From: Cyanobacteria bacterium P01_A01_bin.123
GTDB lineage: Bacteria > Cyanobacteriota > Cyanobacteriia > Phormidesmidales > Phormidesmidaceae
Length of the DNA: 64,000 bases
Reading direction: 5' to 3'
Assembly (NCBI GenBank): GCA_039815185.1
Contig: JBCBZT010000004.1
Coordinates: 160,001 to 224,000 of the forward strand
In this document: piece by piece, positions 25,287-34,472 of the stretch
How positions within the stretch are numbered: the stretch's first letter is position 1
Layout: each line of letters begins with the position of its first letter
Made by a program: the position numbers and the translations under genes
Notes under the pieces: model-generated
What the model saw: only the letters and a program-made list of their open reading frames with translations
Told to the model about the DNA's origin: nothing
The model's database searches: none

Positions 25287-26105
25287 TCATGGGCTCTTGT
25301 GAATTTGCTGTTCTAATCGATGAGCTAACCACAGATCCATAAACGGTCTAGGAGACTTTAAGCGCTTCCACAAAAATGCTGCATAGGCTTGCCGTCTCCG
25401 TTCAAGCTTCTGGGCAGACGCTGCTGGAGGTAGCAGCGGTTGGAGAAAACAATCTGGAATTTGTGCAATCACATCCTGCAGAACTTCAGTAGATAGCCTT
25501 GCGGTCAATTCCCTATCCCAGATATCCAAGTTACGAACCTTGTCCCAAAAGAGGTGACGATCCATCGCATACTTCATGCTGCGGGGAGACGATTCTCGAA
25601 CAGCAGACCAGTTATATTGGAAAGGAAGAGAGGCTCCGTGGTCGATCACCCAAAGTTTGTCTCGCCAACGCAGCAGATTTGGATTCCAAGCGGTGCGATC
25701 GACATTCATTACCAAGCTATCGAGCCAAAGCACCTGACAGGCAAGGTTCTCATCAATGGCCTCAATCTCGTTGGCATGGATATCTTTTGCCCCTTTCAGG
25801 TACTGAAAGCCCAAGTTGATGCCGTGGCTGGCCACGAGGAGATCTCTCAATTCATCTTCGCGGTCTTCGATTTTCAGCGAAGTATCGATTGAGATCAGCA
25901 CTCGACTTGGCATCCATAGCCCCAAAGCTTCAGCCAGCGCGGCAACAATGACCTCCGCTACCAGTGCCGATGTGCCTTGAGCTGCACCACGCAGCTTCGT
26001 CAAAAAATATCCGGCATCCGTTTCAATTAAGATGGGCCGTGAACTGCCAAGCTTCTGAGCTGAGACAACCCGGAGCGCAGAGTAGATTGGAATGGCATTA
26101 CCCAT
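25287..26105 (-). CDS. HipA-like kinase
   Basis: GSSRP, TKLRGAAQG...LVAEVI, NVDRT.WNPNLL, VIDHGASL; start 26105 or 26141. Confidence 0.85.
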   Translation of the reverse strand: MGNAIPIYSALRVVSAQKLGSSRPILIETDAGYFLTKLRGAAQGTSALVAEVIVAALAEALGLWMPSRVLISIDTSLKIEDREDELRDLLVASHGINLGFQYLKGAKDIHANEIEAIDENLACQVLWLDSLVMNVDRTAWNPNLLRWRDKLWVIDHGASLPFQYNWSAVRESSPRSMKYAMDRHLFWDKVRNLDIWDRELTARLSTEVLQDVIAQIPDCFLQPLLPPAASAQKLERRRQAYAAFLWKRLKSPRPFMDLWLAHRLEQQIHKSP

Positions 26106-26307
26106 ACTTAAAATAGGATGCAGGGCTGGTTTGTGGGGCACACATCAAGGAAAAGTAAACTTGCCCGGCACCCCTACAGGTAAAATTATGGATCTCGGGT
26201 ACAGGCAAGATTGAGGGATTTAGTCTCATTTTTAGTAACCAGAGACAAGGGGAGAAATCTGGTTGCTAGGGTAATAATTGAGTTTCCCTGAGGAGGAGTT
26301 GTTCATA

Positions 26308-27429
26308 ATGCGCGTTCGTTACTTAGGCTTGAGTCTCGTCAGTGTAGTAGCAGTGGCAGGTATCAATCTGCCCATCGTTCAAAGGGCGATCGCAGATATC
26401 GGCCCCATCCCCCCAATGGCCCAGCAATTACCCAATGATCCACCTGGAGATGAATCGTCCTCCAGCCCCTCTAATCTCCCTACCTTAGTACGCAACAGCT
26501 TGCGATTGCACATTGCTCAAAATACTGGTGTCCCTTACTCGTTAGTGCAGGTTGTTAGCGCTACTGCCGAAATCTGGACAGATTCGTGTCTGGGGTTAGG
26601 TGGCCCAGCAGAATCTTGTTTGGCTGCACGCTATCCCGGTTGGCGAGTTGAACTCACTGATGGCAACCAAACCTGGATTTATCGCAGCGATCGCACCGGC
26701 AATATCCTCCGTCGAGAATCGCCACAAAATGAAGCGTCAGGCTTGCCGCCGGAAACCGCTCAACGGATTGTTGATACTGTAGCCAACGATCGAGGCCTGC
26801 TGCCGTCCCAAGTTGAGATTATTGCTGCCGAATCCCGTACCTGGGATGGTTGCTTAGGCATTTATCCCGAAGCCAATACCATTTGCACCCAAATTGCGAT
26901 CTCCGGTTGGCGCGTGATCGTAGCTACCCCAGATCAGGTGCAGGTTTATCACACCAACCAAGATGGCAGCAATAGTCGGCTCAACCCATTGCTGACCCAA
27001 GTGGGGGATGCTAGCATTGCGCCTCGATTTCTCACAGGCCCTTTGCCAACCACCTATGAAGCCCCACCCCAATCCGTGTTGACCATTATCACCAGTGGCG
27101 GAATTGCTGGGCGTATCTATAAGACAGTACTCTACAGCGATCGCTCAATAGTCGGCTTCGACATAATCGGCAATCAAATTAACACACCTGCGGATTTAGG
27201 CCGTTTATCATCCCAAGACTACAACACCTTTTTACGTTTGCTTGAGACCCAACAGCTAAGAACCTTTAATGGCCTCCACTATCCTTCCCCCGAAGGTGCC
27301 GCCGATGATATTACGGTCACTCTAATCTCCGGCACCAATCAAGTCATTCAATATTCCGATATTGCGGTCAATCAACTCCCGTCTAGCCTGCAGCTCATAC
27401 ATCAAGGCTGGTTTGAACTGATTAATTAG
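26308..27429 (+). CDS. Secreted protein with two Cys-containing repeat domains and a C-terminal SGGIAG domain
   Basis: AGGAGG RBS, signal peptide (AIA|D), two WxDxCLG...C...GWRV...Y repeats. Confidence 0.75.
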   Translation: MRVRYLGLSLVSVVAVAGINLPIVQRAIADIGPIPPMAQQLPNDPPGDESSSSPSNLPTLVRNSLRLHIAQNTGVPYSLVQVVSATAEIWTDSCLGLGGPAESCLAARYPGWRVELTDGNQTWIYRSDRTGNILRRESPQNEASGLPPETAQRIVDTVANDRGLLPSQVEIIAAESRTWDGCLGIYPEANTICTQIAISGWRVIVATPDQVQVYHTNQDGSNSRLNPLLTQVGDASIAPRFLTGPLPTTYEAPPQSVLTIITSGGIAGRIYKTVLYSDRSIVGFDIIGNQINTPADLGRLSSQDYNTFLRLLETQQLRTFNGLHYPSPEGAADDITVTLISGTNQVIQYSDIAVNQLPSSLQLIHQGWFELIN

Positions 27430-30010
27430 GGTGATGATCTGCCCGGCTAACCAGATCCGCCAGCGATTCTTGCCGCCATAATAGGGCTGTTGCATCCTCA
27501 ACAGGCAGAGGTTTGGCCCAATAGTAACCTTGGCCAAACTCGCAATCCATCGACCGCAGCGCCTCGGCTTGCGCTGGCGTTTCGACCCCTTCTGCAATCA
27601 AATCCATACCCAATGTATGTCCGAGGGAAATAATGGTGCGGATGATTTCGTGGTCCTCTCGACTTTCGTCCATCCTTTGCACAAAAGATAGATCGATCTT
27701 GAGGATATCCACTGGAAATCGACGCAGATGGTTAAGGGACGAATAGCCTGTCCCAAAATCATCCAGCCCCAACGTGCAGCCCAGGGATTTGAGTCGTAAC
27801 ATCAGATCGATCGCCACTTCAACATTACCCATCACCATACTTTCGGTAATTTCGAGTTTGAGCTCTGCCCCTTCGATGCCAGAATCACGAATGCTTTGAG
27901 CCAAGTGACCAATCAATTCGGGTTGTTCAAACTGGCGTCCAGAAATGTTGATGCCCATCATTAAGAGCTGGCTTGGAAATTGAGTTTTCCATTGGCGGAC
28001 TTGATGGCAAGCGGATTGGCAAATCCATTCGCCTAGGGGAATGATCAACCCAGTTTCTTCAGCCAAGGGAATAAACTGTTGAGGTGAAAGCAAACCCCGT
28101 TTAGGGTGATGCCATCGCACCAGTGCTTCAAACCCAACCACATTGCCACCATTGAGGGACATGATTGGCTGATAGTGCAACACAAATTCCTGGTTGTTGA
28201 TACCCTGGCGCAGATCTTTTTCTAGGGTGAATCGATCCACAGACTCTTCTAACATGCCTGCGGCAAATACTTGATAATGGGTCTCACCCAGAGATTTAGC
28301 GCGATACATCGCCGTATGGGCATCTCGCAGCAAATCTTCGGGCGTGTGTCGATATTCATGCTGGGTCAGCGCAATGCCGATGCTAGTGGTGATCACAATA
28401 GGCTGTTGATTAAGCCAGAAAGGATCTGCCAGCACCGTTTGCAGTTGGTCGGCGAGGGTCGTGAGGGTACCGTTATGACGTTGCTTACAGGCAAGCGCAA
28501 ATTCGTCACCACTCACCCTAGCTAAACGAACGGAACCGGGTAAGAGGGTATGCAACCGATCGACGATCAGCAGTAGCAGGCGATCACCCATTTGCCGTCC
28601 AAGACTTTGATTGATCAGTTGAAACCGATTCAGCCCTAGAAACATAACCCCCAAAGCGGATGACGGCTTGTCATGGGGTCGATGGGCTAATGATCGTGTC
28701 AGAGAACGGACAAAAGCACTACGATTGAGCAACCCTGTGAGGGTATCTCGAGTGGTGGCGTATCGCAGTCGGTGGGCCATGACAAAACCCAATCCCGCCA
28801 CAAAGCCCAAGGCAGGCTCCGCCATAGGAATCCAAATCAGCTGGCTAAATGAAATCCATCCGATGCCGCCAATCAGGCCCAGACAGACTGTCCCGGCCAC
28901 GCCAAAGGCTAAAGGATGGCGCAAACTCCACCCCAAACAACCGGCCACCGTTGCCCAACCCCAAAACCAGAGCCACTCTCCCCAACGCGGCCAAAATCGA
29001 AACAATCTCGGATTGTCAGAAGGAATATCGAGCAGTTGGCTGACCATCTGGGCATGGATGATTACCCCTGGCATCTGGAAGATATCTGATTGGGCAGAGC
29101 TATAGGGGGTATAGATCATGTCCTTTAAGCTGGGGGCAAAGGTGCCCACCAGCACGACTTTGTCGCGGATCCACTGAGGATTGACAGTGCCATTCAATAG
29201 TTGACTAAACGTGACGGTGTGGGCCACGTCCCGCCGAGTGCGATAGGGCAACATTACTTGATAGCCCCGAGTATCAGCCGTTTGATACCCCCCATCGGTG
29301 GCCTTTAGGGGAATCACGGGGCGATCGCCCATGAATAACGCATCTGGCGTTACGTCAAAGGTAATCCCCTCTGCTGCCAGATAGGCCAAACTCACCCGCA
29401 GTGCAAAGGAATAGTAATCTTGCTCTGCACCAGCGACAAACAGCAAATTGCGACGCAACACGCCATCTGCATCCAGTGTCAGGTTGTTAAAGCCCACTCG
29501 ATCAGCCTCAACCCCGGACGGCGGCGAAATGTCATGGGCCACATTCGTAATGACAATCAGGTTGTCAGCATGAAGCTGGGTTGCAAAGGCGGTTTGACCT
29601 GGAGGGACGACCATATCCCGGTAAAGATCTAGCCCGATTACTCGCGGTTGGTGCATTTGCAACTGGCTTAACCCCTGGGCCAACTCTTGATCAGATAGCG
29701 GCCAACCATAACGTTGTAAATCGTCTTCATTGATGGTGACAATCAACAACCGGGGATCTAAATCTGCATCGGGTTGCAGTTGAACAAATCGGTCAAAGAT
29801 CTGAAGCTCTAGGGATTCCAACACGCTGAACCGCTGCAGCCCCAAAAACAATCCAGTCAGAAGCGTACTTGAAACCAGCACTGAACGGCCTGCCACCCAA
29901 ATGATGCGAGGTAGGGGGCTTTTGTAAACGCTCAACTGTTGGATTTGCCGCAAACGCGATCGCAGTTGAGTCACTAGAGCAGCGATTGGCAAAGACACTC
30001 CAGACTTCAT
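27422..30010 (-). CDS. CHASE2 - GGDEF - EAL membrane protein (probable c-di-GMP phosphodiesterase)
   Basis: CHASE2 (DPRLLIVTINE.D...WPLSD, PRVIGLDLYRD, DADGVLRR, MPGVIIHAQMVSQLL), 3 TM, DTLTGLLNR, SGDEF, FEALVRW, LDDFGTGYSSL, EGVE. Confidence 0.93.
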   Translation of the reverse strand: MKSGVSLPIAALVTQLRSRLRQIQQLSVYKSPLPRIIWVAGRSVLVSSTLLTGLFLGLQRFSVLESLELQIFDRFVQLQPDADLDPRLLIVTINEDDLQRYGWPLSDQELAQGLSQLQMHQPRVIGLDLYRDMVVPPGQTAFATQLHADNLIVITNVAHDISPPSGVEADRVGFNNLTLDADGVLRRNLLFVAGAEQDYYSFALRVSLAYLAAEGITFDVTPDALFMGDRPVIPLKATDGGYQTADTRGYQVMLPYRTRRDVAHTVTFSQLLNGTVNPQWIRDKVVLVGTFAPSLKDMIYTPYSSAQSDIFQMPGVIIHAQMVSQLLDIPSDNPRLFRFWPRWGEWLWFWGWATVAGCLGWSLRHPLAFGVAGTVCLGLIGGIGWISFSQLIWIPMAEPALGFVAGLGFVMAHRLRYATTRDTLTGLLNRSAFVRSLTRSLAHRPHDKPSSALGVMFLGLNRFQLINQSLGRQMGDRLLLLIVDRLHTLLPGSVRLARVSGDEFALACKQRHNGTLTTLADQLQTVLADPFWLNQQPIVITTSIGIALTQHEYRHTPEDLLRDAHTAMYRAKSLGETHYQVFAAGMLEESVDRFTLEKDLRQGINNQEFVLHYQPIMSLNGGNVVGFEALVRWHHPKRGLLSPQQFIPLAEETGLIIPLGEWICQSACHQVRQWKTQFPSQLLMMGINISGRQFEQPELIGHLAQSIRDSGIEGAELKLEITESMVMGNVEVAIDLMLRLKSLGCTLGLDDFGTGYSSLNHLRRFPVDILKIDLSFVQRMDESREDHEIIRTIISLGHTLGMDLIAEGVETPAQAEALRSMDCEFGQGYYWAKPLPVEDATALLWRQESLADLVSRADHHPN

Positions 30011-30053
30011 TCAAACAATAGTAATTATGACGTTCTCCCAGAATCTCATCTTT

Positions 30054-30200
30054 CTATCGGGTGCCGCCCCCAACCTGCCGCCCAGGGAAATTACCGCGAT
30101 CTGAACTGCCACCCTCAGCCCAGGCAGGCATAGCCATTGCCCCCAAAACGACAAAGGTCAGTAGGCCTATGGATACCGTTGCTCGTTTTAGGGAAATCAT
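30054..30200 (-). CDS. 48-aa secreted micropeptide ending in a DUF928-like GGGTR motif
   Basis: Below ORF-track cut-off. MISLKRATVSIGLLTFVVLGAMAMPAWA|EGGSSDRGNFPGRQVGGGTR*; purine-rich leader AAAGAAGAGAG; stop 43 nt before the CHASE2 gene start on the same strand. Confidence 0.75.
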   Translation of the reverse strand: MISLKRATVSIGLLTFVVLGAMAMPAWAEGGSSDRGNFPGRQVGGGTR

Positions 30201-31559: not shown

Positions 31560-34472
31560 ATGACACATCGTTTCATCCAAAGATTCGGGACTCGATTTGG
31601 GGCATTGCTGCTATTAGGACTGGCGATACCTACTGTGGGGCTGCTCCCAACATCGACAGCGATCGCCCAGGTAAGCACCGACCCCCATCAGCTGCTCCAC
31701 GACGGCATTAACGCCCTCAACCAAGGCAACTATCCCCTTGCGCTACAGCGGTTACAACTGTCTTTGAGTTTGTATCGGCGAGCAGGCGATCGCCTCTATG
31801 AAGGTGTTGTCTACAGTTGGCTGGGTTCGGTCTATGACGAGATGGGGCGCTATGACGACGCGATCGCGGCCCTAGAGCAAGCCTTAGCCATCAGCCAAGC
31901 AGTTGAAGATCGAGTCGGCGAGGGGGTAGCCCTTAATCAAATTGGATTAATTCATCAGCGACGGGGCAATGACGCCGAAGCGCTGGATGCCTACGAACAA
32001 GCGCTAGCCATTTTTCAAGAAACCGCTGAGACAGAAGGCGAAGCTGCGACTTTGAATAACATCGCCAGCATTTATGATCGCCGTGGAGACTATGCTGACG
32101 CCCTTAATACGTACGAACAAGCCCTAGTGCGCTATCGCCAGTTGGGCAGACGTAGTAGCGAAGCAAATACGCTAAAAGGCATGGGCGTGGTGCACTACAA
32201 CCAAGCTAACTATGGCCAAGCCCTAGATCTTTACCAACAGGCTTTGACAATTCAAACGGCGATCGGCGATCGGCGAGAAATAGCCAGCACCCTCAATAAC
32301 ATCGGTGCTGTCCACGCTGATTTAGGCGATTATGCTGCCGCCTTCGAGGCTTACACCCACGCCCTAGAAGTGCGACAAGCCTTGGGCGATCGCGCCGGAA
32401 CAGCGACTACTCTCAACAATATTGCGCTACTACAAGCAGCTCAAGGTAACTATGCTGCCGCCCAGGAGGGCTATAACCAAAGTTTAGCCATTGCCCAAGA
32501 CATGGGCGATCGCCATAGCGAAAGCATAGTCCTGACAAATTTAGGCAATTTGAGCACGACTCTCGGGCAGTTCGACCGTGCCCTGACCTATCATCAGCAA
32601 GCCTTGACCCTACGCCAGACCCTCGACGATCGCGTTGGTATTGGCAGCACCCTCAACAACATGGGGCGGGTCTACTACCAGCAAGGTCATTATGACGAGG
32701 CCCTCAGTGCCTATCGACAAAGTTTAGCGATTTCCCAAACGATTAACACGCCAGATCGAGAGGCGTCTACCCTGGTTAACATCGGGGCTGTTTACGACAA
32801 CCTGGGCGACTTTGAGACGTCTTTGCAACACTATCAGGATGCCTTAGAGATCTTTCAAAATCTAGGTATGCCTGGGTTAGAGAGTGCAACATTAAACAAT
32901 ATTGGCTATGTCTACAGGTTGCAGGGGAATTATGACCAGGCTATTTCAACCTACGAGGCAGCCCTAGCAATTGCCCAAACCATCGGTGATCGCAGTGGCG
33001 CAGCGACGACCCTCAGCAATCTGGGCATTGTCCAACTATGGAGCCAAAACTTTGAGGCAGCTGAGGAGAATTTATTAGCCGCGATCGCAATCTTGACCAG
33101 TTTGCGTAGCCAGGATTTGAGCGATGACGCCAAAATTAGCCTGTTCGATACTCAAGCTGCTACCTATAAGGCGCTCCAGCAGCTCTATGTCGCCCAAAAC
33201 CAACCCCAACGGGCACTGGAAATTTCTGAACAGGGTCGGACTCGTGCTTTTGTAGATCTGTTGACAACCCGGTTAGACAGTGACTCAGAACAGACTGCCC
33301 CCACGATCGCTGCCTCAACTGCCCCTGACATTGAGTCTATCCGCCGCATCGCGGCCCAACATCAAGCCACCCTAGTGGAATACTCCTGGGTTGATCGCTG
33401 CACGCTCTACATTTGGGTAGTGCAACCTGACGGCACCGTCGATTTTCGCCAGGCAGGAGAGTTAGATGAAACGGTGCCCGTAAGTCAGGCAGTGGCCACT
33501 GCCTCGTCTCAAGCGCGCTCAGCCTGCGTGCGTCGAGGCGTTGGTGTAATTGCGGCTGAGGAACTTGAAAATGCTGACGACAGTGCCTTGCAGACCTTAC
33601 ATCAAATCTTGATCGACCCGATCGCCGATTTGCTCCCGACCGATCCAGACGATCACGTCATCTTTATTCCCCATGAGGAACTGTTTTTGGTGCCGTTTCC
33701 TGCGCTTCAAAGTCCCTCGGGGCGTTACTTGATTGAGGACCACACCCTACTGACCGCCCCGTCGATTCAGGTACTCGATCTGACTGCTCAGCGCCAAGCG
33801 GCGATCGCCCAAGCCAGTTCTGTTCAACCCGCTGGAGCTAGGCCTTTAATTGTGGGTAATCCCACCATGCCTAGCCTTGAGTCACCCTTATCGTCTCGCG
33901 CAGAACCGCTAGCACCCCTGCCTGGAGCCGAAGCCGAAGCCAACGCGATCGCAGCCCTGCTGGATACCACCGCCATTACAGGCCAACAAGCTACGGAATC
34001 CTTCATCAAAGCACAGCTCGAAACAGCCCCGATTATCCATTTGGCTACCCATGGTCTCTTGGATTACGGGGTGACAGCAACCTCAGATGGGGTAACCATA
34101 CCGGGCGCGATCGCCCTTGCCCCCAGTACCACTGAAGACGGTCTGCTCACCGCCCGCGAAATTCTGGGATTGTCTACCCAGGCAGATTTAGTCGTGCTGA
34201 GCGCTTGTGACACTGGCTTGGGGACGATTACGGGAGACGGTGTCGTGGGGCTAGCCCGCGCTTGGATTGCAGCCGGTACCCCCAGCCTTGTGGTGTCTCT
34301 GTGGTTAGTCCCCGATGCCCCTACCGCCATCCTGATGACCGAGTTTTATCGCCAGCAACAATCAGGCCTTGATAAGGCTCAAGCCTTACGTCAAGCCATG
34401 CTGCACACGATGGCTAGCAATCCTGAACCCCGCGACTGGGCTGCGTTTACCCTCATTGGCGAGGCCCAATGA
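31560..34472 (+). CDS. Secreted TPR-repeat CHAT (caspase-like) protease
   Basis: Signal peptide (AIA|Q), about 12 TPR repeats (TLNNIG.VY...G.Y..AL..YQQAL), CHAT dyad motifs IHLATHG and LVVLSACDTG, SLW.V.D, WAAFTLIG. Confidence 0.93.
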   Translation: MTHRFIQRFGTRFGALLLLGLAIPTVGLLPTSTAIAQVSTDPHQLLHDGINALNQGNYPLALQRLQLSLSLYRRAGDRLYEGVVYSWLGSVYDEMGRYDDAIAALEQALAISQAVEDRVGEGVALNQIGLIHQRRGNDAEALDAYEQALAIFQETAETEGEAATLNNIASIYDRRGDYADALNTYEQALVRYRQLGRRSSEANTLKGMGVVHYNQANYGQALDLYQQALTIQTAIGDRREIASTLNNIGAVHADLGDYAAAFEAYTHALEVRQALGDRAGTATTLNNIALLQAAQGNYAAAQEGYNQSLAIAQDMGDRHSESIVLTNLGNLSTTLGQFDRALTYHQQALTLRQTLDDRVGIGSTLNNMGRVYYQQGHYDEALSAYRQSLAISQTINTPDREASTLVNIGAVYDNLGDFETSLQHYQDALEIFQNLGMPGLESATLNNIGYVYRLQGNYDQAISTYEAALAIAQTIGDRSGAATTLSNLGIVQLWSQNFEAAEENLLAAIAILTSLRSQDLSDDAKISLFDTQAATYKALQQLYVAQNQPQRALEISEQGRTRAFVDLLTTRLDSDSEQTAPTIAASTAPDIESIRRIAAQHQATLVEYSWVDRCTLYIWVVQPDGTVDFRQAGELDETVPVSQAVATASSQARSACVRRGVGVIAAEELENADDSALQTLHQILIDPIADLLPTDPDDHVIFIPHEELFLVPFPALQSPSGRYLIEDHTLLTAPSIQVLDLTAQRQAAIAQASSVQPAGARPLIVGNPTMPSLESPLSSRAEPLAPLPGAEAEANAIAALLDTTAITGQQATESFIKAQLETAPIIHLATHGLLDYGVTATSDGVTIPGAIALAPSTTEDGLLTAREILGLSTQADLVVLSACDTGLGTITGDGVVGLARAWIAAGTPSLVVSLWLVPDAPTAILMTEFYRQQQSGLDKAQALRQAMLHTMASNPEPRDWAAFTLIGEAQ

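Follow-up and report, generated by a model that had tools for sequence, protein, structure and literature searches.

A 48-residue gene directly upstream of a CHASE2-GGDEF-EAL receptor gene is a narrowly distributed, derived truncation of a DUF928 gene, of which the signal peptide and a terminal motif are left; its likely exported product, a peptide of 20 residues, would bind the neighbouring CHASE2 domain and set the predicted c-di-GMP phosphodiesterase activity of the receptor, a reading to which we assign a probability of roughly 0.6. The locus lies within the window, a stretch of 64,000 nucleotides, and its features are as follows.

30054..30200, minus strand: 48-aa precursor gene, a DUF928 ortholog shortened to signal peptide and motif, with the stop directly after Arg48
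30117..30200, minus strand: predicted Sec signal peptide, residues 1-28, with an A-W-A cleavage site (by eye from the sequence and from the same sites in orthologs L017-L020)
30057..30116, minus strand: predicted mature peptide, 20 aa, 1991 Da, pI 9.6 (from the signal site)
30057..30089, minus strand: conserved motif FPGRQVGGGTR; family pattern F-P-G-R-R-x-G-G-G-T-R/H
30011..30053, minus strand: 43-nt spacer, with no DUF928 remnant and no terminator-like site
27422..30010, minus strand: CHASE2-GGDEF-EAL membrane receptor, 862 aa
28940..29854, minus strand: CHASE2 extracytoplasmic domain, residues 53-357 (AlphaFold2 pLDDT 90.8; no clear PDB match)
28283..28753, minus strand: GGDEF domain, likely inactive (SGDEF and GLNRF)
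27509..28219, minus strand: EAL domain with EALVR and DDFGTGYS intact, likely an active phosphodiesterase
31560..34472, plus strand: divergent TPR-CHAT protease with a signal-like N-terminus and a His/Cys dyad; its membership of the system is doubtful

The 48-residue gene and its receptor

The initial annotation described a minus-strand ORF of 48 residues ending in GGGTR-stop, and translation of positions 30054-30200 agrees with it. The stop lies 43 nt ahead of the co-oriented receptor gene, the start ATG of which is at 30010, and the Sec-type N-terminus that had been described is recognizable by eye in K5/R6, a hydrophobic stretch at residues 9-24 and P-A-W-A with predicted cleavage before a Glu. 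The gene was also said to comprise the signal and motif of DUF928 and nothing more, and this was borne out: the signal peptide followed by a P-x-R-R-x-G-G-G-T-R tail, a feature of DUF928 proteins, is present, no DUF928 remnant was found downstream of the stop, and the ORF matched none of the Pfam families, DUF928 (PF06051) included, which ortholog L017 matches with 169.5 bits over residues 46-224. When the genome (8.09 Mb) was scanned for small ORFs with a hydrophobic stretch, using a score matrix made from 39 DUF928 motifs, six matches were obtained, two of which adjoin a CHASE2 gene, and the 48-aa ORF was the top match, with 29.0 bits vs 17.7 for the next. A promoter scan at the locus was uninformative (4 sites vs 1.7 +/- 1.3 in shuffled sequence). 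The stop codon is spanned by contigs of two other studies (X5 and X8), with no change to it among the differences listed, and an allele in the protein collection (P0022) has one residue different and the same stop. None of the sequencing runs listed as carrying the locus was of RNA. We conclude that the 48-aa ORF is a real gene. Because porins have a size limit, its 2-kDa product would probably remain in the periplasm; for signalling that had been proposed as autocrine or quorum-like, self-signalling is therefore favoured and the quorum-like mode is less likely.

The diguanylate cyclase features (a GG[D/E]EF site and the metal-binding Asp) are absent from the receptor, which has SGDEF and GLNRF, the Gly of the latter standing at what we take to be the place of the first metal-binding Asp in the GGDEF consensus; the EAL phosphodiesterase features (EAL and DDFGTGYS) are present. 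Since the GGDEF domain looks degenerate and the EAL domain intact, the likely output is c-di-GMP breakdown, and the control of c-di-GMP turnover that had been suggested is narrowed, from sequence, to likely degradation. Fold searches with the model of the CHASE2 domain gave no match at E<=0.001 (best Z 5.0), and the PDB yielded no sequence match to this domain and no solved CHASE2 structure. CHASE2 was found in 59 of the 61 cyanobacterial genomes sampled, and the source genome has 15 copies. On the far side of the receptor, a protein of 383 aa, which matched no Pfam family and has a signal-like N-terminus, is encoded at 26278-27429 (plus strand), convergent with the receptor gene and overlapping its stop by 8 nt, and a HipA-like kinase (PF20613) is encoded two genes past the receptor at 25287-26141 (minus strand).

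Descent from a full-length DUF928 gene

Of the receptors in 40 relatives, the four closest to this one (64, 61, 51 and 51% identity) all have a full DUF928 gene at the site. The 48-aa ORF is orthologous in position to the DUF928 genes of L017-L020, next to a receptor of the same CHASE2 clade, and the start of these orthologs (SDRASFPGRRIGGGTR, followed by GEC) is near-identical to the 48-aa peptide. In a quick tree of 77 CHASE2 ectodomains, the labels of which miss the C29 peptide at L007, the receptor of the 48-aa gene groups with four DUF928-bearing loci (5 rows, SH-aLRT 98); it stands apart, in this quick tree, from a separate 48-row clade in which 47 rows have short peptides (SH-aLRT 88), and short forms occur on at least four separate receptor branches. 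At two of the four closest relatives (L267 and L268), a CHAT protease with a His/Cys dyad follows DUF928-CHASE2, and orthologs L019 and L020 keep a full DUF928 with no CHAT behind. The source genome has no ortholog of the related-operon DUF928 body or CHAT; its best matches have only 30% (DUF928) and 34-38% (CHAT) identity and are thus paralogs. These sequence comparisons show that the ancestral site was DUF928-CHASE2/GGDEF/EAL(-CHAT), and that the source genome has lost the DUF928 body and has no ortholog of the cognate CHAT. The TPR-CHAT gene that neighbours the peptide gene was rejected as the cognate protease, as it is not an ortholog of the related-operon CHAT and the genome has 36 CHAT hits in all. 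Four large CHAT genes stand in tandem at each of two further sites in it, G000:C35:75937-87468 and C115:54714-68838. In an AlphaFold2 model of one DUF928 ortholog, the motif is part of an N-terminal tail modelled with low confidence (pLDDT 45-65), outside the folded body, which is predicted to be a beta-sandwich with helices and resembles MtxA 4Z29 (TM about 0.5).

A search of 185,579 species genomes, a set from which near relatives may be missing, for FPG..GGGTR followed by a stop or Trp gave two matches, neither of them in a relative. A JGI metagenome scan for FPGRxxGGGTR followed by a stop or Trp gave four, which were discarded; none was cyanobacterial-looking by its neighbours, and the motif was recovered on translation from a single one, in a reverse frame. 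The exact truncation was therefore not found in other species by pattern scans of species genomes and metagenomes, and, since the four closest receptors have a full DUF928 and the scan returned no relative, the truncation is narrow and derived.

Such an origin is also what would be expected if the 48-aa copy were a dead deletion remnant of DUF928 that stops at Arg by chance, other short forms possibly being functional, and we consider this quite unlikely. The initial annotation had named a full DUF928 in relatives, together with a stop unique to this strain, as the outcome that would point to a remnant; the full gene is indeed found beside the closest receptors, and near-identical strains are the only ones in which the truncation was seen, but independent genes share the stop residue. 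Variation among strains bears on both sides of the question. In X5, 2 of 147 positions differ within the ORF vs 25 of 540 in non-coding DNA, a constraint that is not significant (p 0.09) and is suggestive only. At least four strain differences are listed in the ORF, which by hand are three synonymous changes and one conservative Met-to-Ile change in the signal, and the mature peptide is unaltered by any of those listed. Furthermore, the start, signal and motif are all intact, yet no trace of DUF928 follows the stop.

Recurrence of short signal-plus-motif genes in cyanobacteria and viruses

A profile made from ten short genes matched 179 proteins of 24-132 aa, and the 120 of these that were listed are counted here together with the query (121 in all). 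Among the matches listed, the motif is nearly fixed and the signal and tail are variable; the motif ends in His in 97 of 121 and in Arg in 24, nearly always with a tail, which is absent only from the query and its allele. An exact end at Arg, as had been claimed, thus holds for the 48-aa gene and fails as a rule for the family, where it is the minority form, and the commonest short form, His plus a tail, counts against the model of an Arg-ended ligand. With a larger profile, which also picks up the starts of full-length DUF928 genes, 98 of the 173 genomes of the family were matched.

Gene neighbourhoods were compared for 70 short copies, consisting of the top 30 matches and 40 hand-picked from other listed rows (genera, second copies and weak hits). 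Of these copies, 42 lie directly upstream of CHASE2 and are co-oriented with it, a count that includes kin and so is not one of independent cases, and none of the 70 has DUF928 or CHAT within 1.5-3 kb. The other 28 have no CHASE2 nearby; close receptors are encoded elsewhere in all five such genomes checked. In 69 distinct copies, the F, the P and two Gly never vary, yet every synonymous codon is in use; third codon positions are free to vary, which led us to reject a conserved DNA or RNA element. The 48-aa gene has the defining features of these genes (fewer than 100 aa, a hydrophobic N-terminus, FPG..GGGT[R/H] near the end and a position upstream of CHASE2). Signal-plus-motif genes arose repeatedly, and the 48-aa gene is probably not debris, since short genes recur, adjoin CHASE2 and have motif codons that vary synonymously.

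Within the family, the peptide genes of L080-L109 (genus g17 and kin) occupy a conserved host locus at which CHASE2 no longer follows in 13 of the top 30 hits. A short host peptide upstream of CHASE2 (L033:4534-4785, minus strand) has the first half of its motif duplicated internally. In the source genome itself, a further short signal-plus-motif gene with a Trp-led tail is divergent from a paralogous CHASE2 receptor gene (G000:C60:39845-40057, minus strand), and another is convergent behind a CHASE2 gene and ends in GGSR-stop, exactly at Arg (G000:C29:66027-66185, minus strand). Behind a further CHASE2 gene of this genome, a 296-aa signal-bearing ORF has an RNGGGR motif and no DUF928 match (G000:C78:24169-25059, plus strand).

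Receptors were also taken as the starting point. Among 80 CHASE2 loci, drawn from the best 150 listed of 418 matches in a class-wide search, DUF928 is present at 33, a short candidate at four, three of which held up, and neither at 43 (about 9 kb); these 43 count against universal pairing. The candidate at L222 was discarded as false, and an ORF at L215 from the motif scan as a frame shadow beside DUF928, and the peptide gene at L193 is about 3 kb from its CHASE2, with one gene between. CHAT genes are near 9 of the 33 DUF928 loci vs 0 of the 47 others. The 48-aa gene resembles the DUF928 proteins (PF06051, uncharacterised secreted cyanobacterial proteins) in its near-identical signal and N-terminal motif at the same site, and in the CHASE2 linkage seen at the 33 of 80 loci from the best listed matches; it differs from them in that the whole Pfam domain is missing. 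At the thresholds used, no receptor columns were found that separate His-type (42) from Arg-type (12) partners; D180, D182, R186 and R187, which are conserved, are candidate residues for contact with the peptide.

Of 13 Arg-type truncated lineages identified by searches in which no stop was demanded, five end exactly at Arg (p 2e-4 vs 3 of 64, a crude null), and 4 of 12 do so when L181 is removed (p 0.002). The query and L150, which had been selected for the stop, and L290, the contig of which ends there, were left out of this test. In DUF928 proteins, the residue after the motif Arg is Gly, Asp or Ser in 34 of 39 motifs.

The motif also occurs in viruses. Six pattern scans of IMG/VR matched 43 distinct contigs; 27 were judged chance matches, and a plausible motif gene is present on the other 16, which by eye represent about 11 lineages. 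No CHASE2 or DUF928 was found in the flanks of these 16, and phage hallmark neighbours were confirmed at nine loci. The viral forms include secreted-type peptides, two- and three-copy precursors and long ORFs with the motif at their end, and the exact GGGTR end is found in three viral lineages and one phage-like contig. L150, one of the two species-genome matches, encodes a 44-aa peptide with a hydrophobic leader and GGGTR-stop among rIIA and rIIB genes, and short copies in relatives (L139 and L140) lie beside head and terminase genes. Unrelated viral ORFs of 367 and 331 aa among head/packaging genes (L160:2235-3338 and L161:1132-2127, both on the minus strand) end in FPGRRVGGGTR-stop, and in L276, a near copy of one of them, GGG is replaced by GAG with the stop unchanged. 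These FPGRRVG[G/A]GTR-stop ends match a DUF928-like start, LRSSFPGRRVGGGTR followed by GEC, of small-genome cyanobacteria, in which CHASE2 is within 6 kb of 8 of 9 fetched motif genes; a tenth locus had no motif gene in the scan. Both long ORFs are of low complexity and have no signal peptide, which counts against the reading of the motif as a periplasmic ligand. Homolog searches with the two returned only themselves and one near copy, PHROGs gave no match at L130, L134 and L138 and unknown families only at L132 and L133, and a tblastn search of the GenBank phages with a family peptide gave only eight chance matches (E 6-7). L152/L140, L171 and L134 encode phage or phage-like precursors in which the motif is repeated in tandem, two or three times, with acidic spacers between the copies, and a stand-alone EAL gene on a Mu-like viral contig (L165:312-1304, plus strand) is directly followed by a motif peptide gene. 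A literature search, mostly of journals outside subscription and of main texts, found no report on the motif or its phage copies.

A candidate ligand for CHASE2

The initial annotation knew of no established CHASE2 ligand, in keeping with a 2023 paper on Dgc2 that, in its available part, calls CHASE2 ligands unknown (PMC10581220), and DUF928 is named in the accessible text of PMC5587647 as a gene neighbour only. The complex prediction that had been suggested was carried out with ESMFold2 on peptide residues 19-48, 10 of them signal residues, and the CHASE2 ectodomain. The complex scored 0.58 (runs of 0.65, 0.58 and 0.34) vs 0.01 for the best of three controls, with contact agreement of at least 82% and partner pLDDT of at least 55 in the runs. 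Of 157 solved pairs, 116 attained the mark for a complex, as did 2 of 215 mismatched ones, and scores at 0.60 or under account for 18 of the 157 and for both mismatches, so that the predicted docking on the ectodomain lends weak support. As the PDB search turned up no CHASE2 structure, there was none for the predictor to recall from. A ligand role for the peptide is the best reading, and its structural support, from the model, is weak.

The stop at Arg is of interest beside CHAT proteases. HetF, a CHAT protease, cuts after Arg117 and makes no cut when His, Ala or Asp is there (PMC9457339, in part); because R117H is left uncut, a free C-terminal Arg could not be required across the family. The HetF-PatU3 pair of Anabaena PCC 7120 is similar to what is proposed here in that CHAT cutting after Arg would be the maturation step for full DUF928, and different in that PatU3 is cut for degradation, whereas the DUF928 cut would free an extracytoplasmic ligand and the 48-aa gene needs no cut (same excerpt). 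In the full system, we infer that an Arg-specific CHAT protease would cut DUF928 between the Arg and Gly of GGGTR-G and free the tail as a signal, which would bind CHASE2 in the periplasm. The scarcity of CHAT genes, near only 9 of the 33 DUF928 loci and missing behind the full DUF928 of L019 and L020, counts against such a step. The 48-aa gene would encode the cut product directly, and its receptor would respond to the amount of peptide made and would not wait for proteolysis. His-plus-tail short forms may bypass the protease the other way, being free and uncleavable, and the phages that copy the motif would likely do so to push host CHASE2 signalling. The wider proposal, that CHASE2 is the receptor for a CHAT-released, Arg-ended DUF928 tail, that the 48-aa gene hard-codes this ligand and that cyanophages have repeatedly evolved mimics of it (as secreted peptides, in tandem or at the free ends of long proteins) that steer host c-di-GMP and related signalling, is tentative and stands at somewhat less than even odds.

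The same features may be read with the protease as the addressee. The motif could act on CHAT and not on CHASE2, as a substrate, activator or product inhibitor, with phage copies serving as decoys against a defensive or regulatory protease. An Arg at the likely P1 site fits the specificity of HetF (PMC9457339, in the text available), CHAT genes accompany DUF928 loci and not the others, the Arg-ended viral proteins resemble cut products, and one of the CHAT hits in the genome is about 1.3 kb from the peptide gene. However, 42 of the 70 short copies lie by CHASE2 and none lies by CHAT, the His form would escape cutting, and the cognate CHAT is gone from the genome while peptide and receptor are still together; we therefore regard this explanation as unlikely.

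Release of the peptide may also be questioned. It could modulate the receptor while anchored in the membrane or uncleaved, or could bind another envelope partner, such as an outer-membrane relay like NsrA. Many family members are without a clean A-x-A site, some phage forms consist of a hydrophobic stretch and the motif only, and rhizobial CHASE2 cyclases require the outer-membrane protein NsrA (PMC13001267 and PMC7529298, excerpts), but the 48-aa copy has a canonical A-W-A site in common with secreted orthologs, and viral ORFs without a hydrophobic stretch have the motif at a free end. Retention of this kind seems improbable to us, and secretion of a CHASE2-binding peptide is preferred.

Known systems offer partial parallels to such a ligand. 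PatX and PatS, the heterocyst peptides, are likewise small exported cyanobacterial precursors with a short Gly/Arg-rich active part; theirs is the motif RG[S/T]GR, with the cytoplasmic target HetR and the peptidase PatP, and this motif is absent from the 48-aa gene (PMC12756182, as far as accessible). That the 48-aa product returns to the cytoplasm after export and trimming, and acts on a regulator there, would agree with the outline of PatX, in which a signal, export and an Arg-ended short peptide are alike (same source, in part), but the sequence ends in GGGTR and the gene is derived from DUF928 and linked to a membrane receptor, which makes this route very improbable. In Dgc2 of Leptolyngbya boryana, as in the receptor described here, CHASE2 controls a cyclic-nucleotide enzyme, and Dgc2 affects motility and biofilm (PMC10581220, accessible part). 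CyaD1/D2/CyaK of Sinorhizobium meliloti, with NsrA and uL2, similarly pair a CHASE2-controlled cyclic-nucleotide enzyme with a protein input; they differ in that uL2 acts via an outer-membrane protein and, in the portions available, is not shown as a direct CHASE2 ligand (PMC13001267, PMC7529298). Peptide signalling of the agr type, including the agrD/B/C cassette of phage phiCDHM1, is a further parallel, with a small precursor gene beside a membrane sensor and signalling genes on phages. It differs from the 48-aa system, which has a Gram-negative periplasm, a Sec-type signal, a linear peptide and a c-di-GMP output, and from the cyanophages, which have the peptide motif alone, with no receptor or processing enzyme in the flank (PMC4124054, excerpt).

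Altogether, the candidate CHASE2 ligand is narrowed at this locus to a linear peptide of 20 residues, next to a single receptor with an enzymatic read-out. If the proposal is true, DUF928 and exported CHAT proteases would gain a role, and peptide signalling in the cyanobacterial periplasm would be established, together with a recurrent route by which cyanophages may manipulate the motility or biofilm signalling of their hosts.
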